DNA of 64,000 nt from Candidatus Eiseniibacteriota bacterium (GTDB lineage: Bacteria > Eisenbacteria > RBG-16-71-46): contig JANLWX010000007.1 of assembly GCA_031364845.1 (NCBI GenBank), positions 87,395 to 151,394 of the forward strand, in the 5' to 3' direction. The notes beneath the pieces were generated by a model. The model saw only the letters and a program-made list of their open reading frames with translations. It made no database searches and was not told the origin of the DNA. Numbering within the stretch: position 1 is the stretch's first letter; each line of letters starts with the position of its first letter. Below are positions 15,101 through 61,774 of the stretch, piece by piece. The position numbers were made by a program, and so were the translations under genes.

Positions 15101-16096
15101 ATGAACGCTCTTCACGCCCTCCGTCCACTCGCCCTGGTGCTGTCGCTCGCGCCATTCATGAGCACCCCGCTGCCCGCACACGAGGTCGACGCCTCGGGTA
15201 CCGCTCAGGGGCTCGTCATCCACGACGCGGCGAGCACGTTGCGTGAATATTGTGCGCCGGACTCCGAAGGTCGGCTGTGGATCACGCTTCCCGGCGGGTG
15301 GCGCTTCGAGTTGATCACGTCGACCGACGATCCCGGCATCATCAACCCGGGAGACGGCGCCTTCCATCCGTTCGACGCCGCGGAAGTCACGGCGGCCCTC
15401 GCCCAGCTGAGCTTCCCGGTTGCGGGGATCTCGGCCGAAGTCTTCCTGCTGCCCTATCCGCGCCGCGCGCAGATCGAATCGGCAGCCGGCCCGCGGCTGA
15501 TCCTAATGTCGCCCGGTGTGCGTCCGCTCACGCGCGAACACCAGCATGCCGAGTTCGTTCACGAGCTGGGCCATGTCGTCCATCACGCGCTGATGCCGGA
15601 CGGTGACGGTCGCTGGGACACGTATCGCAGACTCCGCGAGATCGACGACGCACGCTACTCGCCGACGGCCCCGCACGCGGATCGTCCGCACGAGATTTTC
15701 GCCGAGGACTTCCGCGCGCTGTTCGGCGGACCGCGGGCGACCTATTCCGGCACGATCGAGAACTCGAGCCTCGCTTCGCCCGAGGATGTTCCCGGACTCT
15801 CGTCGTTCATGCTCGGGCTCGCCGGCGTCACGGCTCCGCTTCCGATTCTTGCTTCGCCGAACCCCACGCGCGGCGCGCTGCGGTTCACGCTGGCCGGCGC
15901 GAGCGAGGTGCCGCTCGACCTGTTCGATGCCGGCGGACGACGGATCGCGAGCCTCGCGCCCCGTGCGACCGCGGGCGCAATCGAATGGAATTTCGACGGC
16001 TTCGACGCGGCGGGACGCCCGGTGGCACCGGGCGTGCTGTTCGCGCGGCCGCGCGGCGCGCGTCACAGCGCTGCGCGCATCATCGTCGTCCCCTGA
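15101..16096 (+). CDS. secreted putative zinc metallopeptidase with FlgD-Ig-like C-terminal domain
   Basis: Signal peptide, HELGH plus HEIFAEDF, C-terminal ASPNP..LFDAGGRRI..WNFDG..GRPVAPGVLF. Confidence 0.7.
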   Translation: MNALHALRPLALVLSLAPFMSTPLPAHEVDASGTAQGLVIHDAASTLREYCAPDSEGRLWITLPGGWRFELITSTDDPGIINPGDGAFHPFDAAEVTAALAQLSFPVAGISAEVFLLPYPRRAQIESAAGPRLILMSPGVRPLTREHQHAEFVHELGHVVHHALMPDGDGRWDTYRRLREIDDARYSPTAPHADRPHEIFAEDFRALFGGPRATYSGTIENSSLASPEDVPGLSSFMLGLAGVTAPLPILASPNPTRGALRFTLAGASEVPLDLFDAGGRRIASLAPRATAGAIEWNFDGFDAAGRPVAPGVLFARPRGARHSAARIIVVP

Positions 16097-18137: not shown

Positions 18138-19481
18138 TCACCGGCGGGCGATTCCGTACTTGCGCATCTTGCGGTGCAGATTCGTGCGATCGATGCCGAG
18201 GCCGGTCGCGGCTTGCGTGACATTCCCGTTCGCGCTTTCGAGCGCTTTGCGAATCGCCTCCGCCTCGCGTCGTTCGATCTCGCCACGCAGACCGACTCCA
18301 TCGCCGTGTTCCGCGCTGCGCTCGAGCCACGAGGTGAGATCCTCGGCGCGCACTTCAGTTCCTTCCACCAGGATCGCGGCGCGTTCCATGAGATTTCTCA
18401 ACTCACGTACGTTCCCCGGCCAGTGGTATTCCTCGAGCAACGTCTGCGCATCCGGCGTCAGGCGTTTCGGCGCATGTCCTTCCGTCGTGCAGAACTGGTT
18501 CAGAAAGTGTTCCGCGATCGGCGCGATGTCCGCTGGACGTTCGCGCAGCGGTGGCACGTGAAGGGGAAGCACGTTGAGCCGGTAGAACAGATCCTGCCGG
18601 AAGCTGCCGTCTTCGACCGCCGTGGCGAGGTCCTTGTTGGTCGCGGCGACGATGCGGACATCGAAGGTCTGCGTGCGGGTCGCGCCGACCTTCTCGACTT
18701 CGCCGGTTTCGATCACGCGCAGCAGTTTGGCCTGCGCGTCGAGTGCCAGGTCGCCGATCTCGTCGAGGAACAGCGTGCCGTGGTCCGCGAGTTCGAGGCG
18801 TCCCTTCTTGCTCTGAAGCGCGCCGGTGAACGCTCCGCGCTCGTAGCCGAACAGTTCGCTCTCGACCAGATCCTTGGGGATCGCGGCACAGTTGATCTTG
18901 ACGAACGGTCCCGACGCGCGCCGGGAGAGCACGTGGATCGCCTGCGCGACGAGTTCCTTGCCCGATCCGTTCTCGCCCGTGATCAGCACGCGTCCCTGCG
19001 AAGGAGCGACCCGTCGCACGCTCTCGATGAGTGCCGCGATCGCGGAACTCGATCCGAGAATCCCGAGGTCGTCGCCGGGTTTGGAATTCGCGGCGCGCCG
19101 CAGGCCGGTGATCTGCGCGGCCTGCATCACGACATCCAGGAGACGCTCGCGATCCGGTGGCTTCTCGATGAAATCGAACGCGCCGCGCTGGCCGGCGCGC
19201 ATCGCGTTGGCGATGGTCGCCTCGCCCGAGACCACGATCACGCCGACGTCGGGCGCGTTCTCTCGGATGCGTTCGAGCGCGTCGAGACCATGCATGCCGG
19301 GCATCGCGAGATCGAGCAGCACCACGTCGAAGCGGCGCTCCTCGAGCGTCGCGATCGCGCGTTCGCCGGTCTCCGCCTCGGCGACCGTGTGCCCCGCGTG
19401 TTCCAGCACCGCGCGCAGCGCGTCGCGGATGGCGGGATCATCGTCGACTACCAGCACGTCCAGCCGCCTGCTCATCGTCAT
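18138..19481 (-). CDS. sigma54-dependent response regulator (NtrX-like)
   Basis: REC domain, [29 protein letters not shown], Fis-type HTH. Confidence 0.93.
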
Positions 19482-19512
19482 CGTCCCTCGTTTCCTTTCA
19501 GAATTCCGCGCA

Positions 19513-21018
19513 TCATGCGCCTGCGGCCCGTGGCAGCGCGACCCGGGCCTCGGCGCCGCCGCCTTCGCGGTCGTCGAGCGTGATCGTACCGCCGTGCTGC
19601 TGGACGATGTCGCGCACCAGCGACAGGCCGAGTCCGCTGCCGCGCCTTTTCGTGCTCACGTACGGCTCGAACAGCCGGCCGCGCACTGCGGGCGGGAGAC
19701 CGGCACCCCGATCGAGCACCACGAGCGTGACCTGTTCCGCGTTCGCGCGGACTTCGATTTCGATCGCGGCGTGCGGCGGGCTGGCTTCGCGCGCATTGAG
19801 GACGAGGTTGTGGATCGCGCGCGTCAACAGCAACCGGTCGCCAAGGATCGGAGCAGCTTCGCACCGATACTCGACCGGGTCGAGCATGGCGGTGTTCGCC
19901 TGGAGGATCGCGCGCACGATTTCGTCCAGATCGAACGACTCGAACCGCGGTTCCGGCAGCCGCGCGTACTGTGAGAACTGCTCAGCGAGCCGATGCAGAT
20001 GGTCGACTTCGCGCAGCACGCTCGCGAGACTGCGGCGGAACGATTCACGCTCGGCTTCCGGCACCGCCGCGATCTGCGCCTCGACCAGCTGCAGCGAGAG
20101 CTGCATCGGCGTCAAGATATTGCGGAACTCATGCGCGAGTTTTCGCGCGACATCGCGCCACGCGGCTTCGCGTTCGGCCTGCTGGACCGCTTCACGCGCG
20201 GATTCGAGTCCCGCGGCCATTTGGTTGAACGACGACCCGAGCGATCGCAGCTCGAGCGCCCCGGCGGGCGCGACCCGTGCCGCGAGATCCCCCGCGGCGA
20301 CGCGCTCCAACGCTTCCGACAGCGTCTGAATCGGCCGCGCAGTGTCGCGCGCGATCGTGTGGGAGAGGAAGACCGCACCGGCGACCAGCATCACGACGAT
20401 CGCCGCGACCATGATCATGTAGACGCGGCGTTGCAGATCCACATACACACCGAGCTGGCGATAGTAACCGGTGCCGGTGCCGAGGTTTTCGATCTGCTCG
20501 AAGAATTCCGGGCTCACGCGCACACCGGCGACGACCGCATCACCGCCCGCCGCCTGGCTCACGCCCGCGATCGCGCCGGCCGGGAAACGCAGTACTTCGC
20601 CGGACTCGAGCGCGGGCGAAATCGCATTCGCGAGATCGAGCGGTGTGGCCTGGATCACGCCGCGCGGAGTCACCTGTGCGACCCGCTGCCATTGCCCGCT
20701 CGCATCGCGCCGGTACACCTGAAGGAAATCGACGCCCGCCGCCGCCAGCTGCGCGCTCCACGATTGCTCGGTCGCCAAGGACAGCGATCCCGTCCAGCGC
20801 GACGCCCACACGTCGGACTGGGTGAGCAGCGTGGATTCGAAGCGCGCGAGTGAACCCTTGCCGATCTCGAGTCCGGCTTCGAGCGCGCGGGCCACACCCG
20901 GTCGATACCAGCGATCGATGGAGCGTCCGAGCTGATCGAGTGTGAACCAGGTGAAGACCGCGGTGGGAAGCAGCGCCAGCGCGAGGAGCGCAACCAGGAG
21001 CCGGTTTCGGAGCGTCAT
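19513..21018 (-). CDS. HAMP sensor histidine kinase (NtrY-like)
   Basis: 2 TM segments, HAMP, AWRDVARKLAHE H-box, N/G1/F/G2 boxes. Confidence 0.9.
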   Translation of the reverse strand: MTLRNRLLVALLALALLPTAVFTWFTLDQLGRSIDRWYRPGVARALEAGLEIGKGSLARFESTLLTQSDVWASRWTGSLSLATEQSWSAQLAAAGVDFLQVYRRDASGQWQRVAQVTPRGVIQATPLDLANAISPALESGEVLRFPAGAIAGVSQAAGGDAVVAGVRVSPEFFEQIENLGTGTGYYRQLGVYVDLQRRVYMIMVAAIVVMLVAGAVFLSHTIARDTARPIQTLSEALERVAAGDLAARVAPAGALELRSLGSSFNQMAAGLESAREAVQQAEREAAWRDVARKLAHEFRNILTPMQLSLQLVEAQIAAVPEAERESFRRSLASVLREVDHLHRLAEQFSQYARLPEPRFESFDLDEIVRAILQANTAMLDPVEYRCEAAPILGDRLLLTRAIHNLVLNAREASPPHAAIEIEVRANAEQVTLVVLDRGAGLPPAVRGRLFEPYVSTKRRGSGLGLSLVRDIVQQHGGTITLDDREGGGAEARVALPRAAGA

Positions 21019-24175: not shown

Positions 24176-24269
24176 TCGTCAGTACCCACTCGTCACCAGC
24201 AATGTGATCGTGCCCTGGAAAGGACAGCCAGGGTGCTCCGATGCGGTCGTGATCACCGAGGGTTGAAAA

Positions 24270-27200
24270 GTGCAGCGAGCGATCCCCCCCGATCTGGCTC
24301 AGGCCCGCCGCTCCGAAAGGAGCGGGGCGCCGCAGCATGAAGCGATCGGCGATCTTCATCTCGCGGCCGACAATTTCGTCGGTGCCGCCGAGGAATATGT
24401 CGCGGCTCTTCGCGAAGTCGGCGCGTCGGAGCCCGCGGAGCGGTGCCGCCTGCTCGAGCGGCTTGCCGAAGCCAATCGCCGCCGCGGAGACTTCGATGGC
24501 GCGATGACGGCGCTGATCGAAGCACGCGCGACCGCGCGACTGCTGATGGATTCGCGGTGGAACGCGCGGATTGCCGCCCGCTTCTCGCATGTGCTCGCCG
24601 ACCGCGGGCTCCATCGCCGCAGCCGCCGGTACGCGCACTACTGCTATCGCGTGCTGCGCGACACCGACGAACACCGCATCGTCGGACAGGTCAGTGTGAC
24701 GCTCGGTCTGTGCAGTGCGCGACTCGGTCAGAGCCAGGAGGCGATCGACTGGCTTCAGAGCGCGGCTGCCACGTTCCGCCGCATCGACGATGTCGAAGGC
24801 CTGGTGACCGCACTCAACAATCTCGGTCTCGTCTACAAGAACCTGCGCGAATGGCGTGAAGCGACCCGCTTCATCGAACAGGCGCTGCGCCTCGACGAGC
24901 GCGCCGGCCTCTACGCGCGGATGCGGGGCCACAATCAGAATCTCGGGTTGATCCGCTATCGTCTCGGCCAGTGGGATCTCGCTGAAGAAAACTTCCGCCA
25001 GTCGCTCAAGATCTCGCGCGACATCGGACATGCGCAGGGCGAGTCGGTTGCTTTGCTGGCGCTCGGCATGCTCTGCCGCCGACGCCGCCAGTTCGAGCGC
25101 GCCGATGAGCACTTCCAGCGCGCGCTCACGCTCTCGACGCGCGCCGGAGCGCGCCGCGAACAGATCCTGTCGCGCGAGTTCCTGGGAGAACTGGCACTCG
25201 ACCGCGGCGATGCGATCTCCGCCGAGCGCCACATCGCGCCGGCGCTCGAGGAGGCGATCGCGCTCGCGCCGCAGGGTGATCTCGTCGCGGAACTGGAGAC
25301 GCGCCTCGGCCTCACCTTCACCGCGCTCGGTCGCATCGACGAGGCGCAGTCGCATCTGCTGCGCGGCATGATGGTCGCGGAGCATATCGGTGATCGCGTG
25401 GAGCATGCGGTCGCCGAGCGTGGGCTCGCGCGCCTCGATGCGATCCGCGGGAATCCCGCCGCGCTCGAAGCCAAGATCCGCTCGGCGGCTCAGGTGTTCG
25501 AAGGACTCGGCGAGACCTATGAACTCGCCGTGACCCTGTCGATGTGGGGTGAGGCACTGCTCGACCTGCCGAAGAGCACCCGGTTGCGGGTGCCGCTCGA
25601 GGCAGTCGGTGATGCCGCCAAGCGTTCCGCCGCGCTGTTCCGCGAGCTCGGCGTGATCGCACTCGCGGCCGAGGCGCTCATCACGCTCGCGCGGCTCGAA
25701 AGCGAACGCGATCACTATGATCAGGCGCTGTCGCTGCTCGAGAAGGCGGAGCAATGGCTCGCCGATGCCGGATCCGCCGAGACCGAGGAGCGCGCGAAGG
25801 CGCTGCGCCGCGAACTCGAGCAGCAGTACGTCGCGGTTTCGCTTTCGACCTGCAACGAATTCCGGGCACTCGAGGAAGCCAACCGTCTGTTCCGCGAGAC
25901 CAGCGACATGGACGGCCTGCTCGCGGGCACCGTGCGCCTCGCGGTCGAGAGCGCGGGCGGCGATCGCGGATTTGTGGCGTTCAGCCACGGCGGTGGACGG
26001 CTCGAAGTCGTCGCGCAGTACGGGCTCGGCCGCGATCGCGCGCGCCGCATCCTGCGCGTGATCGAAGGTGTCGGCGGCAGCCGCATCGCCGAGAACGGAC
26101 CGGTGTTCTCGAGCCGGGTCACTGCCGATCCTCGCTTCGGCGCGGCGCTGACCGACGCGCTCGAGAACGTCGGATCGCTCGTGTGCGTGCCGCTCAATTT
26201 CCCGTCGCAGTCGGTCGGCATGGTCTACGTCGATCGCCTCAACGACAATCTGCTCGGCCCGTTCCGCCAGCGCGAATTGAATCTGCTCGCGGTACTCGCG
26301 AACAGCGCCGCGGTCGCGATCGTCGAAGCCCAGCGCTCGCTGCTGCTCGCCGAGAACAAGCAACTGCGCGACAAGCTCAAGCCGATGCCCGGCGTCGAGC
26401 GCGTCGTGACCGATTCACGCGAGATGACCTCGATCCTCAAGCTGATCGCGAAGGTCGGCGACAGCTCGGCGACCATTCTGTTCATGGGCGAGACCGGCAC
26501 CGGCAAGGGCCTGCTGGCTCAGGTCGTGCACGAGGTCTCCAACCGGCGCGACAAGGCGTTCGTGATGGTGAACTGCGCCGCACTGCCCGAGCAGCTGCTC
26601 GAGAGCGAGCTGTTCGGCTACGTCCAGGGTGCGTTCACGGGTGCCGTCCGCGACAAGGTCGGCCTGTTCGAGGAAGCGAGCGGCGGGACGATCTTCCTCG
26701 ACGAGATCGAGAAGGTTCCGGAGACGGTGCAGGCCAAGCTGCTCCACGTGCTCGACAGCGGCGAGATCCGCCCGGTCGGAGCGACGCGCAGCCGCAAGGT
26801 GGATGCGCGCGTGATCTGCGCCACCGGCTGCGATCTGCGAGAGCGGATCAAGGACGGCCGGTTCCTCGAGGATCTCTACTACCGCCTGAACGACATCTCG
26901 ATTCGCGTGCCCTCGTTGCGCGAGCGCCGCGAAGACGTGCCCGTGCTGGCGCAGCATTTCCTCGGCTACTACTCGAAGCAGATGGAGAAGCGGATCACGG
27001 GTTTCGCGCCGGGCGTGATGAAGGCGTTCCTGGACTACGAATGGCGCGGCAACGTGCGCGAACTCGAAAAGACCGTGAAGCGTCTCGTGGTGCTCGCGGA
27101 CGACGGCGACACGCTCGACACCACGCTTCTGCCTTCCGACATGCTGGAGACGATGCCTGCGGCCGGCGAGCGGGCACCGGGTATGAGCCTGCGCTCCAAC

Positions 27201-27353
27201 GTTTCGCAGCTCGAGAAGAAGATGATCGCCCAGGCACTCGAGCGCCATCATTGGAACAAGGCGCGTACCGCGCGGGAGCTGGGCCTCAGCTACCCGACGC
27301 TGCTCACCAAGATTCGGAGCTTCAAGATCGAGCGTCGCCCGGCCCACTCGTGA
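24270..27353 (+). CDS. TPR-GAF-AAA+ sigma54 enhancer-binding protein with HTH
   Basis: About 500 aa of TPR repeats (ALNNLGLVY, NLGLIRYRLGQW), GAF (SLVCVPL..VGMVYVD), GETGTGKG, GAFTGA, FLDEI, WRGNVREL, NKARTARELG. Confidence 0.93.
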   Translation: MQRAIPPDLAQARRSERSGAPQHEAIGDLHLAADNFVGAAEEYVAALREVGASEPAERCRLLERLAEANRRRGDFDGAMTALIEARATARLLMDSRWNARIAARFSHVLADRGLHRRSRRYAHYCYRVLRDTDEHRIVGQVSVTLGLCSARLGQSQEAIDWLQSAAATFRRIDDVEGLVTALNNLGLVYKNLREWREATRFIEQALRLDERAGLYARMRGHNQNLGLIRYRLGQWDLAEENFRQSLKISRDIGHAQGESVALLALGMLCRRRRQFERADEHFQRALTLSTRAGARREQILSREFLGELALDRGDAISAERHIAPALEEAIALAPQGDLVAELETRLGLTFTALGRIDEAQSHLLRGMMVAEHIGDRVEHAVAERGLARLDAIRGNPAALEAKIRSAAQVFEGLGETYELAVTLSMWGEALLDLPKSTRLRVPLEAVGDAAKRSAALFRELGVIALAAEALITLARLESERDHYDQALSLLEKAEQWLADAGSAETEERAKALRRELEQQYVAVSLSTCNEFRALEEANRLFRETSDMDGLLAGTVRLAVESAGGDRGFVAFSHGGGRLEVVAQYGLGRDRARRILRVIEGVGGSRIAENGPVFSSRVTADPRFGAALTDALENVGSLVCVPLNFPSQSVGMVYVDRLNDNLLGPFRQRELNLLAVLANSAAVAIVEAQRSLLLAENKQLRDKLKPMPGVERVVTDSREMTSILKLIAKVGDSSATILFMGETGTGKGLLAQVVHEVSNRRDKAFVMVNCAALPEQLLESELFGYVQGAFTGAVRDKVGLFEEASGGTIFLDEIEKVPETVQAKLLHVLDSGEIRPVGATRSRKVDARVICATGCDLRERIKDGRFLEDLYYRLNDISIRVPSLRERREDVPVLAQHFLGYYSKQMEKRITGFAPGVMKAFLDYEWRGNVRELEKTVKRLVVLADDGDTLDTTLLPSDMLETMPAAGERAPGMSLRSNVSQLEKKMIAQALERHHWNKARTARELGLSYPTLLTKIRSFKIERRPAHS

Positions 27354-27690
27354 GCGAGTGACGTCTTCGAGTTCTGCCTTAGAGGGGTCCATTCGTTCCT
27401 CGACCCCCGGCGATTGAAGACCCTTAAAGACGGCTGACCTCGCGAACCCGAGACCGCCCGTCTCTCCATCCTCGAAACACACAAGTTCTTTCCCTCACCA
27501 CCATAAAAACAATTGCTACCCAAGTCCCTTATTCGGCGCGGACTTAGATTCTGCCCTCGAAATCACGCAGAAGTCTTGTGTCACCCGAAACACCCGGGGC
27601 AAACTCAGGACTAAGAATGGCGAAGCGAATCGAACTCGATTCGATTGTGCGACATGGTGTTACGGGATTGTCTTGTCGCCGTCAGATCGC

Positions 27691-27706
27691 TGGCATGCAG
27701 GGTGCT
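27691..27706 (+). promoter_or_regulatory. sigma54 (-24/-12) promoter
   Basis: TGGCATG-CAGG-GTGCT, GG-N10-GC; predicts +1 near 27717. Confidence 0.7.
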
Positions 27707-27716
27707 TTAGTAATCA

Positions 27717-28142
27717 GGCGGAGGGGGGGGACCTCCAAACCAAGTTCAGCGAGCGATTGCTGGACGAACAAGACATCTGGGCTAGCCGGTTCCGTAGGAG
27801 TCGGTCAAGGGTTACGAGCCCCAGTCTCACAAGGACGAATGCACCGCCCTCTACGACCGGCTAGCTTGGAGTAACACTCCGAACATCGAACACCACCCAC
27901 GACTTTTCATATTCCCGGGGTGCTCCTGATACGACAGGCGGCGGGTCCGCTGACGACGAGGGCTCCTGATCCCGCTGCAAGTTGAGCGCCCCGGGGTATT
28001 CAAGGACACCGGTTTCTAGCAACTTCGGCCAGCATTGGGGGATGCCTCGGTCGACGCGGCTTAGCTCTTCGAAGCCGGTGTCCTCGTTTCGAGAAAGTGT
28101 GGCGCGGCTCACACACACGTGAGACCGCGCCGCACTGTTTTT
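27717..28142 (+). ncRNA. candidate novel ~425-nt structured ncRNA
   Basis: Bounded by a sigma54 promoter and an intrinsic terminator; three 82-90 nt domains closed by 10-14 bp stems, GNRA-capped hairpin, G-U pairs favour + strand; no convincing ORF. Confidence 0.7.
28096..28142 (+). terminator. intrinsic terminator
   Basis: AGTGTGGCGCGG-CTCAC/GTGAG-A-CCGCGCCGCACT stem followed by GTTTTT. Confidence 0.8.
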
Positions 28143-28274
28143 GCCGTCGTCGGTGTGGCGAAGACTGTGGATCCGCGATTCTCCGCCCGTCCCCGCCCCG
28201 TAACTTGTTGGCGCATAAGGATGGCCCCGTCCACTCGGAGCCCATCTACAATCTGCGCCTCACAAGGAAAGCGA

Positions 28275-28289
28275 TGGCACGGGCATTGC
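28275..28289 (+). promoter_or_regulatory. sigma54 (-24/-12) promoter, consensus match
   Basis: TGGCACG-GGCA-TTGC; partial IHF-like site (reverse CAA-CAAG-TTA) near 28201-28210. Confidence 0.8.
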
Positions 28290-28353
28290 CGTTGCTGTTC
28301 CGTTCGCGACTCGTAACCCCAAGGATCGCCTCGCTTACGGAAAGGACAGGCCC

Positions 28354-29178
28354 ATGAGATCCGCCCTGGTCATGACGTCGATGCTCGCCCTGGCAGGCTT
28401 GGTCGCCGGGTGCAACGACTCCACCGCACCCCGAGATCTCATCGCACCCGCGGCTCCGCGCGGCCTGGTGACGGTGACCGGGGACCACGTCGTGTACGTG
28501 AGCTGGCTCGCCAACACCGAAGGCGATGTGGCCGGCTACCGGATCTACGAGGCGCCGTGCCCTGACGGCGACGGGTGCCCCTACGATCCGGTCGGCGTCA
28601 CCTCGAGCACCCGATTCACGATCGAGGGGCTCACCAACGGCGAGACGCGCTTCTTCGCCGTCGCCGCATTCGATCATGCGGGCAACGAGAGCGCCCTATC
28701 CAAGGATCTCGCCTTCGACACGCCGCGACCTGAAGGATTCGACCAGTTCCTCAGTGACGCGACCGACCAGCCCGCGACGAGCGGCTGGGACTTCTCGGCC
28801 CGGGCGGTGCGCGCGTTCGATGATCCGGCGGTCGACGTTTACTATGTACGCTCGAGCGGGGTGGATCGGATCGTCGCGCCGTTCGTGGACACCGACATCC
28901 AGGACGCGGGTTACGCGACCACACTCGATGCCATCGACTTTGCGCCGACCGGCGGCTGGTCGCCGACCGGCGCCACGGAACTCGTGGTCGGGCACTGTTA
29001 CATCGTGCGGACGTTCGACGATCACTACGCCAAGCTGAGGGTCACGGGCCTCGCGGCGGGCCGCGCGCAGTTCGATTGGGCCTATCAAATCGATCCGGGC
29101 AACCGCGAGCTCAAGGCGCGGCCCGCCAATCGCGAAGGGGGCCGGGTCCGCCGGCACACCGTGGCGCTGGTGCCATGA
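28354..29178 (+). CDS. lipoprotein with fibronectin type III-like domain
   Basis: Lipobox LVAGC; PAAPRGL..VSW..DVAGYRIY..GLTNG..FAVAAFDHAGNES. Confidence 0.75.
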   Translation: MRSALVMTSMLALAGLVAGCNDSTAPRDLIAPAAPRGLVTVTGDHVVYVSWLANTEGDVAGYRIYEAPCPDGDGCPYDPVGVTSSTRFTIEGLTNGETRFFAVAAFDHAGNESALSKDLAFDTPRPEGFDQFLSDATDQPATSGWDFSARAVRAFDDPAVDVYYVRSSGVDRIVAPFVDTDIQDAGYATTLDAIDFAPTGGWSPTGATELVVGHCYIVRTFDDHYAKLRVTGLAAGRAQFDWAYQIDPGNRELKARPANREGGRVRRHTVALVP

Positions 29179-33285: not shown

Positions 33286-34794
33286 ATGAGCAATCATCCG
33301 TTCACGTCGCAGAAGCCTCGTGGATATTTCACGGGGGCGGCCCTGCTGGTCGCCGTCGGACTCGTCATCGGCCTGGGACTGTCGGCGGGTCTCGATTTCC
33401 AGAAGACCTCCACCGCTCAGAAGACGACAATGGTTCCGGCGGCGAGCACGATGGCCGCGGTGCCCGAAAGCCCGTTCGTGTCGGTCGTCGAGCAGGCGCT
33501 TCCCGCCGTCGTGTTCATCGATGTTCGCAAGAACGCCGCGAGCAGCCGGACCGGCGATCCGCAGGCCGATCTGTTCCGCCGCTTCTTCGGCGAAGAGGCC
33601 CCGCGCCGCCAGCAGCAGGCTCCGCCCAGCTCGGGCTCCGGCTTCATCGTCGATACGGACGGCCACATCCTCACCAACAATCACGTGGTGCGTGACGCCA
33701 GCGACATCACGGTGACGCTCAACGACCGCCGTTCGTTCAAGGCGAAGGTCGTCGGCGCCGACCCCGAGACCGACGTCGCGGTCATCAAGATCGAAGGCGA
33801 AAACCTGCCAGTGCTGCGTCTCGGCGACTCGGGCCAGGTGCGCATCGGCGACTGGGCGATCGCGATCGGCAACCCGCTCGGCATGCTGCGCGGCTCCGTC
33901 ACGGTCGGCATCATCAGTGCGCAGGGTCGCTCGGATCTCAACATCTACGGCGGGACGCCGCAGTACCAGGACTTCATCCAGACCGACGCCTCGATCAACT
34001 TCGGCAACTCGGGCGGACCGCTGTGCAATATCCGCGGCGAGGCGATCGGCATCAACACCGCGATCAACCCGAGCGGCCAGGGCATCGGCTTCGCGATTCC
34101 GATCAACCTCGCGAAGCACGTTTCGGATCAACTGATCGCCCACGGCACGGTGAAGCGCGCGATGCTGGGTGTGTTCCTCGCGGAACTGACACCCGAAATC
34201 GCAGAAGGCTTCGGCCTTGGACGCACCGACCAGGGCGTGATCATCCGCGACGTTCAGGATGGTTCGCCCGCCGCGCGCGCGGGGCTCAAGCGCAACGATG
34301 TGGTGGTCGAATTCGACGGGCAGCCGGTCACCGAGTTGCAGAAGTTCCGCATTCGCGTTGCCGATACCCCGGTGGGCAGGAGTGTCCCGGTCACCGTGCT
34401 GCGCGACGGCAAGCGTGAGAAGTTGAACGTGACGCTCACGAGCAAGGAAGATGACCCGGTCGCCTCCGGCGATCCCGCAGCGCGGACCCCGGAGACCGTC
34501 TCGGAGCTGGTGGGCGGACTCAAGGTGCGCACGTTGAGCGAGGAAGAGCGCGCCGCGTCCAAGCTGACCGGCGGTGTGGCGGTCGCCGATGTCGCCGAGG
34601 GCAGTGCGGCCAGCGACGCCGGAATCCAGGCCGGTGACATCATCCAGGAAGTCGGCGGAAAGGACGTGAAGTCCGCCGCGGACTTCGCCAGACTGATCCG
34701 TGAATCGAAGAGCCAGAGGAAGCATGTCGTTCTGCTGGTCAGCAGCCCGAACGAAGCGCCGCGATTCGTGGCGCTCCGACTCGAAACACGTTGA
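33286..34794 (+). CDS. degP: Do/DegP/HtrA family serine protease with two PDZ domains
   Basis: GSGFI, TNNHVV, DVAVIK, IQTDASINFGNSGGPL; GGAGG RBS. Confidence 0.92.
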   Translation: MSNHPFTSQKPRGYFTGAALLVAVGLVIGLGLSAGLDFQKTSTAQKTTMVPAASTMAAVPESPFVSVVEQALPAVVFIDVRKNAASSRTGDPQADLFRRFFGEEAPRRQQQAPPSSGSGFIVDTDGHILTNNHVVRDASDITVTLNDRRSFKAKVVGADPETDVAVIKIEGENLPVLRLGDSGQVRIGDWAIAIGNPLGMLRGSVTVGIISAQGRSDLNIYGGTPQYQDFIQTDASINFGNSGGPLCNIRGEAIGINTAINPSGQGIGFAIPINLAKHVSDQLIAHGTVKRAMLGVFLAELTPEIAEGFGLGRTDQGVIIRDVQDGSPAARAGLKRNDVVVEFDGQPVTELQKFRIRVADTPVGRSVPVTVLRDGKREKLNVTLTSKEDDPVASGDPAARTPETVSELVGGLKVRTLSEEERAASKLTGGVAVADVAEGSAASDAGIQAGDIIQEVGGKDVKSAADFARLIRESKSQRKHVVLLVSSPNEAPRFVALRLETR

Positions 34795-34862
34795 ACCCGG
34801 ATTTGGGAGGCGGCCGCAGGCTGCCTCCCACTCCGAGTCACAGCCGATGCCCGCGGCCAACC

Positions 34863-34938
34863 GGCAGGCTGATGAAGAACCCGAGTGCAGCGAGGAGCGA
34901 CCGAGCAACGCAGCAATCGGGTTTTTCATCAGCCTGCC
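34863..34938. repeat. REP/MITE-like palindromic element, short copy
   Basis: 22-nt terminal inverted repeats GGCAGGCTGATGAAGAACCCGA/TCGGGTTTTTCATCAGCCTGCC; core shared with 36259-36381. Confidence 0.8.
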
Positions 34939-35003
34939 AAGGCGCGGGCACCGTGCTTAGGGTCTCCGGGTCAGTCCCGGCCGAAAAAAGAGGACGATCG
35001 ATC

Positions 35004-36221
35004 GTGCGAAGGACTCGCCGTCTGATGTCGTTTGTGACAACGCTGCTGATCGCGACCTCCGCGTCGTTCGCCGCCGTGCGTGCGGACGGTCCGGTCGCCA
35101 CACCGGGCGTGACCACGCTCACCGGCCTGCGTTCGTGGTCGGCTCCTTCGAACACTCGTGTGGTTCTCGCCTTTTCGGCGATGGTGACGCCGGTGGCGCC
35201 TGACTCCGGCAAGAGCCGCGAGTTGGTGGTCGCGTTCCCGGGCGAGACGCTGCCGCGCGCGGCCGACGTTCCCTCGATGCTCGCCGTTCGCGACGGGCTC
35301 ATCGACTCGGTCGTCGTGCAGGATTCGCCGACCGGCGCGCGCGTGCTCATCACCTTCCGCGACACGGTCAAGTTCCGCGTGTTCCCGTTGCCGGGCGAGG
35401 CGGACAAGCAGTACCGCCTGGTCGTGGACGTGGCGCGCCCGGGTGGCGCGGCGGCCGAAGAGAAACGACTCGCAGGCATCGCGAACGCGAAGAAGCGCGA
35501 CCGCGTCCGCATCGTCACGGTCGATGCCGGACACGGAGGCGACGACACCGGAGCGCGCGGCCCGCGCAACGTGCTCGAGAAGCGCGTCACGCTCGGCGTC
35601 GCCAAGGCGCTGGTCGAGGAGCTCAACAAGATTCCCGGCATTCGCGCGGTCAACACGCGCGACGGCGATTTCTTCATCCCGCTGCGCGAGCGCTATCGAA
35701 TCGCCGAACGCATGAACGCCGATCTGTTCGTGAGCATCCACGCGAACTCCTCACGGCGTCGCGGGAGCGGCAAGGGCACGGAGGTCTACTTTCTGTCGGT
35801 GCGCGGCGCGAGCGATCAGGCCACGCAGGATCTGGCTGACATCGAAAACGCGGCCGATCAGCTGGGCGGCGTGCCTTCGCAGGCCGAGGATGATCTCGTG
35901 AACATCCTCTACGACGTGAAGCGCAGCTCAGCCCAGCAGCAGAGTCAGTTGCTGGCGGAAACGCTGCTCGACCACCTGGGCGAAGACCGCCGCCTCGAGC
36001 AGCGCGGCGTGAAGCAGGCGGGATTCGCCGTGCTCAAGTCGGTCGAATTCCCGTCCGTACTGGTTGAGACCGCGTTCATCAACAACCCGGTCGAAGCCAA
36101 ACTGCTCGGAAATCCGGAGTTCCAGAAGCAGCTCGGCCGCCAGCTCGCCGCCGGCGTGAAGATGTACTTCCAACGGGCGGGAGTCACGCTTGGCTCGGAG
36201 ACCTCGCAGGCGAGGCCATAG
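35004..36221 (+). CDS. N-acetylmuramoyl-L-alanine amidase (AMIN + Amidase_3)
   Basis: VDAGHGGDDTGA, LEK, DLFVSIHAN, PSVLVETAFINN; start uncertain. Confidence 0.9.
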   Translation: MRRTRRLMSFVTTLLIATSASFAAVRADGPVATPGVTTLTGLRSWSAPSNTRVVLAFSAMVTPVAPDSGKSRELVVAFPGETLPRAADVPSMLAVRDGLIDSVVVQDSPTGARVLITFRDTVKFRVFPLPGEADKQYRLVVDVARPGGAAAEEKRLAGIANAKKRDRVRIVTVDAGHGGDDTGARGPRNVLEKRVTLGVAKALVEELNKIPGIRAVNTRDGDFFIPLRERYRIAERMNADLFVSIHANSSRRRGSGKGTEVYFLSVRGASDQATQDLADIENAADQLGGVPSQAEDDLVNILYDVKRSSAQQQSQLLAETLLDHLGEDRRLEQRGVKQAGFAVLKSVEFPSVLVETAFINNPVEAKLLGNPEFQKQLGRQLAAGVKMYFQRAGVTLGSETSQARP

Positions 36222-51174: not shown

Positions 51175-52617
<1,443 letters not shown>

Positions 52618-53360: not shown

Positions 53361-53555
53361 AGTCCAAGGAGATAGGCGGGGTTGGAAGCCGCGCCGGAGA
53401 TGGCAGGCTGGGCTGGGTAGGACACGACCTCTCGCGCCCCGCTTGATCATGATGTAGGGCAACCCGCATGCCATGCGCCCCTGGCCCGGCCGCATCGTCA
53501 TCAACCCCACGCCAAATGGAGCTTTTCGAAGACGGCAGGGGTTCGAACCCCCGCG
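53325..53555 (-). ncRNA. candidate structured ncRNA divergent from rho, class unassigned
   Basis: ~160-nt rod (53363-53520) with nested stems whose G-U pairs only work on the minus strand, plus its own terminator; 5' end uncertain. Confidence 0.5.
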
Positions 53556-59215: not shown

Positions 59216-61774
59216 ATGCCCATTGCCGATGCCGCGTCCCCGCTGTCCATCAGATCTCGCATCGAGCGGCTCAGGCTAATCGGATTCCCTCTGGCGGCGG
59301 CGCCCGTCCGGTTCATCGTGCTCATGGCGCTCGCCTTCCCGCTGACCGCCAACGCCCAGTTGCTCGATCGCGACCTGTGGACGACCGATGGGAGAGTGGA
59401 CGCGATCACGACCTCCGCCGGCAGGATCTACATCGGAGGCTCGTTCACCCGGGTTTCGCCGATGGTCGGGGGTGCAGCGCTTCTCGATGGCACCACCGGT
59501 GCGCCGATCGAAGTGTACGGGCGCGTCAACGGGCAGGTGCTCGCCGCGGTCGGCGATGGCAGCGGAGGATGGTTCCTGGGCGGCGGATTCACGTCGGTGC
59601 GAGGCGTGACCCGCAACAACCTCGCGCACGTCGACGCATCGGGCAATCTGACCTCGTGGAATCCGGGCGCCAACGGCGTGGTCCGCTCCCTCGCCTATGA
59701 CGGCGCCGTGTTCGTCGGCGGCGAGTTCAGCACGCTCGGTGGCCAGCCGCGCGCCTACATCGGCGCGGTCGATGCGGGCGCAGGCGGCGCGACCGGCTGG
59801 AATCCCGGGAGCAACGGCACCGTGTATTCGATGGTCGTGAACGGCGCCAACCTCCTCGTGGGCGGCAACTACTCCATCATCGGCGGTCAGGCGCGCGGCT
59901 GCATCGCGGCACTTGGCATCGCCACCGGGGTGCCGACCTCGTGGAACCCCATTGCGAACAACGTGGTCACGACCATGGCCTTCCGGGGGAACACCTTGTA
60001 TGCGGGCGGCTATTTCACCGAATTCGGTGGCCAGCCACGGAGCTATCTCGCGGCCGTCGATCTCACGAGCGGTGCCTTGGGTTCATGGAATCCCGGCGCC
60101 GATCAGCCCGTATTCGCCCTGCGCACGACCCAGCGCCTCGTGCCGCCCGGAACGATCACGGTGTTCGCGGGCGGATACTTCGCGAACATCGGGGGTCAGG
60201 CGCGCAATTATCTCGCCGCGCTCGACGGCGTGACCGGTGCCGCCACCGCCTGGAATCCCAACGCCGACGATGCCGTCAACGCGATCGCGGTCCGCGCCAG
60301 CAACGTCACCGGTGAGGCGACGACAATCTATGTGGGCGGCGATTTCCAGAATGTCGCCGGCCAGCCGCGGCATCATCTCGCGGCCCTGACTCCGGCGGGT
60401 GCGGCCACCGCGTGGGATCCGTCGCCGGACGAGGCCGTCACCTCGCTCGCACTCGGCACCGGCACGGTTCACGTCGGAGGCTCCTTCAATGCCATCGGCG
60501 GGCAGCCGCGCAATCGAATCGCCGCCCTGGACGCCGCGAGCGGTGCCGTGACCGCATGGAATCCCAACGCTAATGGAGACGTGCGCGCCCTGGCATTCTT
60601 CGGGAGCACGTTGTTCGTGGGCGGCGTCTTCAGCAACATCGGCGGACAGGCTCGATACAGCATCGCGGCCCTCGACACGATCACCGGAGCCGCGACCGCG
60701 TGGGATGGGGGCGCAGTCGACCCGCCGCGGCCGTTCGCCGAAGTCAACGCGATCGCTGTGCGCGCGGGGGTCGTCTATGCCGGCGGACGGTTCTCGATCA
60801 TCGGCGGACCAAACGCATTTCGGAACAACATCGCCGGGCTCGACGCCGTGACCGGAGCACCCACGAACTTCAACGCGAATGCCGATGGCGTCGTCAGCGC
60901 TCTCGCGACCACGCAGCGGATCACGTTCCCGAACCTCGTCACCGTCTATGCAGCCGGTGAGTTCTTCGCGATCGGAGGACAACCCCGATTCCAGATCGCG
61001 GCACTCGACGGCGAAACCGGTGCCGCGACCACCTTCAACCCCAGCGCCGATTATCCGGTTCGCTCGCTCGCGGTGAGAACCAGCAACATCACCGGGGCGG
61101 CGACGACCATCTATGCCGGCGGCGAATTCCTGAACATCGGTGGTCAGCCGCGCCGTCAGATCGCAGCTCTCACCCCCGCGGGTGCGGCGACCAGCTGGAA
61201 TCCCGATGCGGCTGGGAGCGTCACCGCGCTTGCCTTCAAGAGCACGGGCATCGTGGCGGGCGGATTCTTCTCTACGATCGGCGGCGCGACCCGAAGCAGC
61301 CTCGCCGAGATCGATCTGGGAACCGGGCTCGCCACCGCGTGGAATCCGACCCCCAACGGCCAGGTCACGGCCGTCGCGTCGGCCGGGGGGCTGATCTACT
61401 TCGGCGGATCCTTCGCCAAGGTGCTCGGAGAGGCGCGTCCCAAATTCGCAGCCGTCACCGATCAGACCGTTGCGGTCGAAGCGCCGGTCGCGATCCCGCC
61501 CGGGCTGTCTTTGAGTGCCGCCCCCAATCCATCCCGGAGTGGCGTGGCACTCACCCTCACGCTCGCCGAGCCGGGCGATGCCGAACTCGGTGTCTACGAC
61601 CTCGCCGGGCGTCTCGTCCGACGCGTGCACCGCGGCCCGCTCGCAGCCGGGGTTGCGCGGCTGAACTGGGATGGCCGCGACGACCGGGGCCGGGCGCTGA
61701 CCGCAGGGATCTACTTCGCGCGGGCCCATGCGGGAACGCAGGGGGCGAGCCTCAAGCTGCTCCGGCTCGAATAG
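59216..61774 (+). CDS. secreted beta-propeller-like repeat protein with FlgD-Ig-like C-terminal domain
   Basis: 14 repeats of about 48 aa (V.A+...+YVGG.F..IGG..R..IAALD...G..T.WNP); C-terminal AAPNP..VYDLAGRLV..WDGRDD.G..AGIYF; AGGAGG RBS. Confidence 0.8.
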   Translation: MPIADAASPLSIRSRIERLRLIGFPLAAAPVRFIVLMALAFPLTANAQLLDRDLWTTDGRVDAITTSAGRIYIGGSFTRVSPMVGGAALLDGTTGAPIEVYGRVNGQVLAAVGDGSGGWFLGGGFTSVRGVTRNNLAHVDASGNLTSWNPGANGVVRSLAYDGAVFVGGEFSTLGGQPRAYIGAVDAGAGGATGWNPGSNGTVYSMVVNGANLLVGGNYSIIGGQARGCIAALGIATGVPTSWNPIANNVVTTMAFRGNTLYAGGYFTEFGGQPRSYLAAVDLTSGALGSWNPGADQPVFALRTTQRLVPPGTITVFAGGYFANIGGQARNYLAALDGVTGAATAWNPNADDAVNAIAVRASNVTGEATTIYVGGDFQNVAGQPRHHLAALTPAGAATAWDPSPDEAVTSLALGTGTVHVGGSFNAIGGQPRNRIAALDAASGAVTAWNPNANGDVRALAFFGSTLFVGGVFSNIGGQARYSIAALDTITGAATAWDGGAVDPPRPFAEVNAIAVRAGVVYAGGRFSIIGGPNAFRNNIAGLDAVTGAPTNFNANADGVVSALATTQRITFPNLVTVYAAGEFFAIGGQPRFQIAALDGETGAATTFNPSADYPVRSLAVRTSNITGAATTIYAGGEFLNIGGQPRRQIAALTPAGAATSWNPDAAGSVTALAFKSTGIVAGGFFSTIGGATRSSLAEIDLGTGLATAWNPTPNGQVTAVASAGGLIYFGGSFAKVLGEARPKFAAVTDQTVAVEAPVAIPPGLSLSAAPNPSRSGVALTLTLAEPGDAELGVYDLAGRLVRRVHRGPLAAGVARLNWDGRDDRGRALTAGIYFARAHAGTQGASLKLLRLE

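Follow-up and report, generated by a model that had tools for sequence, protein, structure and literature searches.

A large structured RNA with its own sigma-54 promoter beside a TPR-GAF activator gene in Candidatus Eisenbacteria

The gap that follows a gene for a sigma-54 enhancer-binding protein in a genome of Candidatus Eiseniibacteriota (assembly GCA_031364845.1, contig JANLWX010000007.1, positions 87,395-151,394) encodes a strongly folded RNA of about 370-430 nucleotides (nt). This 64,000-nt stretch of DNA is denoted the window here, and all coordinates are positions within it. The RNA, which is located on the plus strand at 27717-28142, is very likely an independent noncoding RNA driven by its own sigma-54 promoter. 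The family is new to Rfam 15 but its kind is already known, namely, sigma-54-dependent regulatory RNAs encoded beside activator genes. Two of the hairpin loops carry the same G-run and are probably functional sites; they are complementary to a C-run located a few codons into the adjacent activator gene, and the RNA may regulate translation of the activator through this contact.

Fold and conservation of the RNA

The RNA gene consists of the following parts:

27691..27705, plus strand: sigma-54 (-24/-12) promoter of the RNA, TGGCATG-N4-GTGC, with the predicted start at 27717
27720..27736, plus strand: P1, the 5'-terminal hairpin (GGAGG, loop GGGGGGA, CCUCC), invariant in 66 of 66 aligned sequences
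27744..27765, plus strand: P2, a variable 9-bp hairpin (fold and alignment)
27776..27870, plus strand: domain 1, a 14-bp closing helix (27776-27789 with 27857-27870) and a multi-branch core with conserved hairpins (fold and covariation)
27868-27880, plus strand: small hairpin (fold)
27913..27996, plus strand: domain 2, variable in length and sequence
28003..28084, plus strand: domain 3, a long hairpin with the G-run GGGGGAU in its apical loop at 28037-28043 (MAFFT alignment and covariation)
28097..28142, plus strand: inverted repeat and T-run, that is, a 16-17-bp hairpin at 28097-28135 followed by TGTTTTT (fold)

An earlier reading of this DNA from its letters alone (hereinafter, the sequence-only reading) had described the sigma-54 promoter, the hairpins, the three domains and the terminal hairpin, and all of these are present in the sequence and in the minimum-free-energy fold. 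The fold of 27717-28142 has an energy of -196.2 kcal/mol (z-score -6.19) that is equaled by none of 100 shuffled sequences; for the minus strand of the same interval, the z-score is -3.23.

The helices are kept in relatives by compensatory changes, which indicates that the structure exceeds the level expected by chance. In the 5' half of the molecule, 97.8% of the 2446 cells in an alignment of 66 distinct sequences are standard pairs, a value to be read with the caveat that the alignment was fitted to the covariance model and thus is biased towards structure. In the same alignment, 17 of the 38 pairs change on both sides (164 cells), none of 500 shuffles reaches any of the five measures, and pairing falls to 31-55% in controls with slid partners. 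All four modeled pairs of P2 change on both sides, and this hairpin is capped by tetraloops that differ in sequence among relatives. Helices 3-6 of domain 1 are paired in 99.0, 96.4, 94.1 and 98.9% of the cells, respectively, with 13 of 29 pairs changing on both sides, and the multi-branch junction contains long, invariant unpaired stretches. An independent MAFFT/RNAalifold analysis of 20 full-length sequences yields 63 pairs, 27 of which show compensatory changes, and such changes are also abundant in domain 3 (14 of 21 pairs in a MAFFT alignment of 51 sequences). The closing helix of domain 2 appears, with many different letter pairs, in 37 of 52 folds, a count taken from single sequences rather than from an alignment; the domain is nearly absent in one relative (L111).

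The strand assignment follows from fixed G-U pairs together with the z-scores. In the closing helix of domain 1, a U-G pair is fixed in 66 of 66 sequences and a G-U pair in 55 of 66, and these would be A-C on the opposite strand, which bears out the claim of the sequence-only reading that G-U pairs favor the plus strand. The same reading had noted that the region contains no credible open reading frame (ORF). Accordingly, the length of domain 1 modulo 3 is distributed as 30/26/10 over the 66 sequences, which means that no frame is kept; the median length of the longest ORFs is 58 amino acids (aa) on either strand, which is uninformative at 66% G+C.

At the gathering thresholds of Rfam 15, the only match in the window is a tRNA. 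In the E-value mode, a search of 27300-28400 up to E = 10 returned three matches, to two animal microRNA families and to a region of a fly long noncoding RNA; all have E-values of at least 0.86, fall far under the cut-offs and were rejected as chance. The RNA therefore lacks a credible match in either mode. RNase P RNA, tmRNA and 6S RNA were each found above cut-off elsewhere in the genome, so that the locus is none of these, in agreement with the lack of tmRNA and RNase P hallmarks noticed before. The RNA is present in a single copy, and no paralogs were found in its own 4.6-Mb genome.

An index of public sequencing runs contains 14 RNA libraries with small shares of the words of this stretch, and contigs from four of these libraries, each from a different study, were placed. 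These contigs, 127-346 nt long, cover 27733-28029; none falls on the activator gene, on 28030-28142 or on the operon, although such gaps in coverage carry no evidential weight. The closest ones are a 144-nt contig with a single difference and a 271-nt contig with seven differences and a gap, whereas the others come from relatives and run into their own versions of the neighboring hairpins. Two contigs from two studies begin at 27733, directly after the run of eight G, where a technical break at the G-run is likely. The RNA sequence is thus present in soil and sediment RNA libraries, which lends weak support to its transcription given that the contigs show neither ends nor strand and may hold DNA.

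Distribution, shorter relatives and gene context

A covariance model (R1) of the 5' half of the RNA, built from 20 genera, gives one match each in 96 of the order's 102 genomes and covers all 34 genera. Matches were obtained for all 53 high-quality genomes (completeness of at least 90%, contamination of no more than 5%); completeness is 53-81% in the six genomes that R1 misses, and two matches, on separate contigs, occur in one genome of 79% completeness. When a sample of the class was searched, R1 detected the RNA in all 46 other members of the order and, weakly, in two of the 104 genomes outside it. Both weak matches lie in the same gene neighborhood and correspond to a form about 140 nt long. 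One unpublished genome (G026), of which no sequence was read, is counted in these tallies.

This short form is found in other families of the class (L069, L070, L075, L101, L112, L117, L123, L127, L130, L131, L145, L150 and L180), again in the same gene neighborhood. It comprises a sigma-54 promoter, P1, one long hairpin, and a stem followed by a T-run of 5-9. Among 16 sequences examined, 11 are short forms, and in 10 of these a stem with at least five T ends the molecule at about 127-131 nt; the eleventh has an interrupted T-run, and two short forms have T-runs of 8-9. The short form has a conspicuous putative terminator, and therefore the RNA appears to be a gene in its own right rather than a leader. 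A third form (L072, L119, L136 and L146) combines P1 and a G-run tip similar to that of domain 3 with a different body. P1, which was also seen in families f2, f3 and f11, is the most conserved element across the superfamily and the only one common to all forms.

An exact-pattern scan for P1 over one genome per species yielded at least 119 stretches. Among the listed matches, 73 have a sigma-54 promoter just upstream, and 46, which come from unrelated taxa, have neither this promoter nor domain 1 and represent chance. Most of the record titles among the listed matches name metagenome-assembled genomes of Candidatus Eisenbacteria. Several contigs with both the promoter and the hairpin carry the labels of other groups, namely Gemmatimonadetes, Bacteroidota, Alphaproteobacteria, Hyphomicrobiales, Saccharimonadales and Acidobacteriota (L073, L074, L080, L112, L123, L131, L178 and L180); these may be mislabeled or mis-binned Eisenbacteria.

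The RNA occupies the gap 3' of the activator gene and is followed by an operon on the same strand:

24270..27353, plus strand: gene for the sigma-54 enhancer-binding protein, 1027 aa, with TPR, GAF, AAA+ and Fis-type helix-turn-helix domains (Pfam)
28354..29178, plus strand: gene for an Fn3-like lipoprotein, the first of the downstream operon (weak Pfam match to fn3)

The Pfam matches of the activator are Sigma54_activat (3.8e-64), TPR_12, GAF and HTH_8. The Fn3-like protein has a signal peptide and a lipobox, as read by eye, and its gene is followed by a 169-aa ORF and a gene for a DUF4384 protein (Pfam, 1.5e-14). The gene order Ppx/GppA - activator - RNA - Fn3 lipoprotein is conserved. In a sample of 61 loci from 50 genomes, 11 of the loci being duplicates of the same place, the C-terminal 299 aa of the activator adjoin the RNA in all 50 genomes whose flanks were read, and the Fn3 gene is found 3' of the RNA in 45 of the 50; three of the five misses stop at a contig or locus edge. 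In the relative L069, a different gene lies downstream of the RNA. At L007 and L046 (G016:C121), the C-terminal part of the activator is represented by two matches on opposite strands near the contig end, which looks like an assembly artefact or a rearrangement.

Promoters and the 3' element

The promoter of the RNA is kept at the same place throughout the family, with 58 of 64 sequences matching a strict pattern and all 64 a relaxed one. Two further elements belong to the regulatory DNA of the locus:

28275..28289, plus strand: second sigma-54 promoter, for the downstream operon, with a consensus sequence (pattern scan)
27645..27663, plus strand: upstream promoter element, 5' of the -24 box by about 45-50 nt (alignment of relatives)

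The second promoter is located 460-640 nt 3' of the RNA start in 50 of the 64 sequences; of the remaining 14 loci, most do not extend far enough to include it. Altogether, the window contains seven matches to the -24/-12 pattern compared to 1.15 expected from shuffles; the five matches other than these two promoters are at 372-386, 16023-16037, 51221-51235, 53459-53473 (minus strand) and 59488-59502. In relatives, the upstream element consists of a near-palindrome followed by a CAA-N4-5-TTG core, which may be a bending site of the IHF type and would suit a DNA-bending protein. Of 64 sequences, 41 have the core at positions -60 to -18 of the RNA promoter, whereas two control windows have it in 5 and 8 of 64; for the second promoter, the corresponding counts are 14 of 50, compared to none and three in the controls.

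Position and promoter type lead us to infer that the RNA depends on the adjacent activator. The sequence-only reading had gone further and called the RNA a new class that is the direct output of the TPR activator. The novelty holds with respect to Rfam 15, and both the invariable adjacency to the activator (50 of 50) and the promoter (64 of 64) fit, whereas the dependence itself should be treated as a prediction.

The 3' end of the RNA is less straightforward. The sequence-only reading assigned the terminator to 28096-28142, and the fold and the T-run indeed make an intrinsic terminator at 28097-28142 likely for this genome. A simple terminator scan did not flag this segment, which can be explained by the scan permitting only loops of 3-8 bases and no bulge. 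In relatives, however, the core of this segment is mostly a conserved element, composed of two inverted-repeat arms and a conserved central block, that is tied to the downstream promoter. The distance from this 3' element to the second promoter is nearly constant (median 134 nt, standard deviation (SD) 13.5, n = 44), whereas that from domain 3 to the element varies from 24 to 169 nt (SD 33). In 13 genomes, there is extra sequence between domain 3 and the element, which in several cases includes a terminator-like hairpin. Many relatives have a U-rich stretch 3' of domain 3, and several long forms have a terminator hairpin immediately 3' of it. Pairing of the first arm with the central block finds no support in covariation (the observed values are reached by 90-468 of 500 shuffles), and pairing of the first with the last arm in a fixed register is not significant either (52-212 of 500); a variable extension pairs, as judged by eye, in shifting registers. 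The copy at this locus is the only one in the genome with a sigma-54 promoter downstream. From these sequence comparisons, the 3' element is probably a DNA element tied to the second promoter, a candidate enhancer or activator-binding site that also ends the RNA in this genome. The conserved core of the RNA then probably extends from 27717 to about 28090, and the transcript in this genome probably ends at 28142.

The properties of the 3' element could be taken to mean that the entire locus is not an RNA and that its inverted repeats are DNA-level palindromes bound by proteins. The element itself fits this description: its inverted-repeat core is invariant, its pairing shows no significant covariation, and it keeps a fixed distance from the second promoter. 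For the locus as a whole, the idea is hardly conceivable because the helices in 27717-28084 vary in sequence while their pairing is kept, one strand is singled out by the fixed G-U pairs, P2 ends in stable tetraloop types, and contigs from RNA libraries cover the region.

It is highly improbable, too, that the RNA is a cis-acting leader, that is, a long 5' untranslated region of the lipoprotein operon controlled by regulated read-through of the terminator. The RNA shares its strand with the operon and immediately precedes it, and alternative pairings could be conceived for short complementary segments that are repeated within domain 3 and beyond it; such pairing, however, is what the shuffles fail to support (90-468 of 500 reach the observed values). 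Furthermore, a consensus sigma-54 promoter of the operon itself is located 3' of the RNA and ahead of the first gene, the RNA and the operon are set apart by terminator hairpins with T-runs, and in L069 the RNA is followed by a different gene.

The G-run loops and the activator start region

The working parts of the RNA would be the two loops with an invariant motif, a G-run ending in A, in P1 (27723-27731) and at the tip of domain 3 (28037-28043). The motif of domain 3 is kept in 51 of 51 sequences, save for three single-base variants at its 5' edge, and when P1 is folded alone, its G-run sits in a 7-nt loop. The counterpart of these loops is found at the beginning of the activator gene:

24277..24300, plus strand: predicted hairpin in the region where translation of the activator starts, with a C6 loop (fold of the short stretch, -8.2 kcal/mol)

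The run of seven C at 24284-24290 corresponds to positions +15 to +21 of the activator ORF (codons 5-7) and is complementary to both G-rich loops. Conservation of this segment is far beyond that of the surrounding coding sequence. In family f1, all 21 genomes (21 genera) keep AT followed by at least six C within +1 to +30; the identity of third codon positions is 0.96 in codons 1-8 compared to 0.60 in codons 9-30, positions +12 to +20 are 99% identical, and a normally unpreferred Asp codon is retained. In family f3, five of five genomes keep a run of six or seven C at the same place. Across the 4.6 Mb of the genome, there are only 87 runs of at least seven C on both strands, and the motif GATC6+GATC is unique. 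A crude screen for T followed by six C within 30 nt of a plausible start returned five places genome-wide, one of which is a tRNA-like false positive and one the activator. In the leader of the fn3 gene, there is no such C-run (at least five C in 4 of 49 sequences).

The leader of the activator has features of its own. A hairpin at 24213-24236 closely precedes the ribosome-binding site. Within the 60 nt that lead up to the activator start, most relatives have a leader hairpin CCGG-A-CGAACCG-CCGG with a conserved loop, followed by CAACCGGGTG, and the Shine-Dalgarno region GAGGGTTCGAAAA is nearly invariant.

These observations can be combined into a mechanism. When the adjacent TPR-GAF-AAA+ activator is switched on, sigma-54 RNA polymerase would transcribe the RNA and, from its own sigma-54 promoter, the neighboring lipoprotein operon alongside it. 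The two G-run loops would then contact their most likely target, the C-rich hairpin loop a few codons into the activator mRNA. Loop-loop pairing by 6-8 G-C pairs, which is the typical size in known kissing complexes, would occur within or at the edge of the ribosome footprint and alter translation of the activator, most likely lowering it and thereby closing a feedback loop; both the pairing in vivo and the sign of the effect are predictions.

Several lines of evidence weigh against this scheme. The loops and the C-run are both invariant, and so no compensatory change links the two partners. In the genus g28 of family f3, A replaces U 5' of the C-run without a matching change in P1. The start region of L070, the one short-form locus for which such an activator start was read, has no C-run although P1 is intact, and the three f2 genomes have, respectively, a C8 run just after the start codon, such a run about 100 nt upstream of the open frame, and none. 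In view of these cases, P1 must have a further partner or a different one. The calculated duplex between the whole RNA and the activator start is not exceptional (-65.1 kcal/mol, compared to -62.7 +/- 6.8 for the background; 36% of random windows reach the same level), a comparison that ignores accessibility and that, in GC-rich sequence, builds long artificial duplexes. No consistent copy of the 3' element or other activator-binding site was found upstream of the RNA's own promoter. Finally, the limits of the library contigs described above apply here as well, and the explanation rests on computation for an uncultured organism. Taken as a whole, the account of a trans-acting regulatory RNA with activator feedback appears evenly balanced, and the feedback on the activator mRNA, considered as a separate proposition, stands at or slightly below that balance.

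Given that no similar element is found upstream of the RNA promoter, one enhancer, situated 3' of the RNA gene, may serve both promoters. An extended version of the feedback scheme, which is tentative and rather doubtful as a package, combines such a single enhancer (about 400 bp from the upstream promoter and about 135 bp from the downstream one) with the two G-loops clamping the C6 loop of the activator mRNA in a double kissing complex that would set the activator level, and regards P1 as the core of a phylum-wide superfamily of RNAs from 140 nt to 480 nt.

The invariant loops are also open to a different interpretation, under which the RNA sequesters a protein: the GGA loops would bind CsrA or another RNA-binding protein, and the C-run of the activator would be unrelated. 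CsrA prefers GGA in a loop next to a stem, and both invariant loops end in GGA beside the stem. This genome encodes CsrA, as do 55 of the 56 genomes of the order with a completeness of 90% or more, although CsrA is so widespread that this co-occurrence is hardly informative. The size and the multi-hairpin build resemble those of CsrB, and retention of P1 where the activator has no C-run would be readily understood. However, only two GGA loops are invariant, and the RNA contains a median of 10 GGA motifs compared to 7.3 in shuffles, whereas the known CsrA sponges have many more; the short form has a single GGA loop, and there is no Rfam match to the CsrB/Rsm families. This interpretation also leaves unexplained the frozen synonymous sites at the activator start, and on balance we consider it improbable.

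Somewhat more weight, although still on the unlikely side, can be given to a trans-acting structured RNA with some other partner or activity, such as other mRNAs, a protein, a ribonucleoprotein or catalysis, in which the core function would fall to domain 1, with tertiary contacts as the role of the G-loops. The invariant unpaired junction stretches of domain 1 exceed the requirements of a simple base-pairing small RNA, all 53 high-quality genomes of the order have the RNA, which makes it as universal there as housekeeping RNAs, and P1 outlives the C-run. Conversely, the short form, which consists of P1 and one long hairpin, lacks domain 1, so that this domain is not the minimal functional unit; a signal-dependent sigma-54 promoter speaks against a housekeeping role, and RNase P RNA, tmRNA and 6S RNA are encoded elsewhere. 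Regulation of the activator through the G-loops is retained here as the preferred explanation.

Surroundings of the locus

The spacer that separates the activator gene from the RNA promoter (27500-27600) contains a further conserved hairpin, formed by AAGTCC at 27522-27527 and GGACTT at 27540-27545. The letters of the stem differ between genera with complementarity kept, the loop motif ACTTAG is constant, and conserved A/T-rich blocks flank the hairpin. It may be the terminator of the activator gene or an additional element. On the minus strand at 18138-21018, 3 kb upstream of the TPR-GAF activator, there is an NtrC-type sigma-54 activator with a receiver domain together with a HAMP histidine kinase. 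On the other side, 3' of the lipoprotein operon and on the same strand (33286-36221, plus strand), there are genes for an HtrA/DegP-type protease, which has two PDZ domains, and for an AmiC-type amidase with an AMIN domain. The protease and amidase neighbors suggest an envelope theme for the locus.

Relationship to known sigma-54-dependent RNAs

The closest architectural parallel is CrcZ/CrcY of Pseudomonas under CbrB, where an RNA of about 400 nt with sigma-54-dependent transcription is encoded directly downstream of the activator gene. The comparison with CrcZ, which had been drawn in the sequence-only reading, applies to this arrangement (a large RNA, a sigma-54 promoter and a position directly 3' of the activator gene) but does not extend to kinship in sequence or structure. 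CrcZ acts through repeated A-rich motifs that capture Hfq/Crc, whereas the RNA described here has two invariant G-run loops, a highly paired multi-domain fold and no Rfam match; furthermore, its activator is a TPR-GAF protein and, unlike CbrB, not a response regulator.

The proposed circuit has the same logic as that of the Qrr small RNAs of Vibrio, which depend on sigma-54 and LuxO, are encoded beside the activator gene and pair with the luxO mRNA, resulting in negative feedback; for the RNA described here, the feedback is a prediction. The Qrr RNAs are about 100 nt long, Hfq-dependent and use a linear seed, in contrast to the 370-430 nt and the proposed loop-loop contact in the present case. 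GlmY/GlrR of enterobacteria and Pxr/Nla19 of Myxococcus are further sigma-54-dependent small RNAs beside activator genes, GlmY being a protein decoy and Pxr a developmental repressor; both are much smaller and have different folds, and the present RNA has no match in Rfam. CsrB and RsmZ are similar to this RNA in size and in the GGA motifs in hairpin loops, and a CsrA gene is present in the genome; they differ in that the present RNA has only two invariant GGA loops, weak GGA enrichment, no Rfam match and a sigma-54 promoter, in place of the GacA-type promoter of CsrB/RsmZ. In Sinorhizobium meliloti, NtrC is reported to repress the small RNA NfeR1 in a double-negative NfeR1/NtrBC loop (PMC10746234). 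That circuit is akin to the one proposed here; NfeR1, a small RNA, is unrelated in sequence to the present one. Thus, the absence of an Rfam match and the differences in motifs, size and fold set the RNA apart from these RNA families.

Implications

Candidatus Eisenbacteria have no cultured member, and no described regulatory RNA of this group was found in the literature; a search of full-text articles on Eisenbacteria regulatory RNAs, RNA motifs and sigma-54, with subscription journals outside its coverage, returned nothing on this RNA. The RNA is a large, multi-domain, covariation-supported addition to the few bacterial RNAs longer than 300 nt whose mechanism is unknown, and it yields a precisely testable hypothesis, the pairing of the G-loops with the C-loop in the activator mRNA. 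In practical terms, the combination of P1 with the promoter can be used as a marker for Eisenbacteria contigs, some of which are deposited under other phylum labels. Above all, the RNA matches housekeeping RNAs in its universality within the order although its promoter is signal-dependent. Therefore, it is probably the main read-out of one conserved sensory pathway in these common soil and sediment bacteria.

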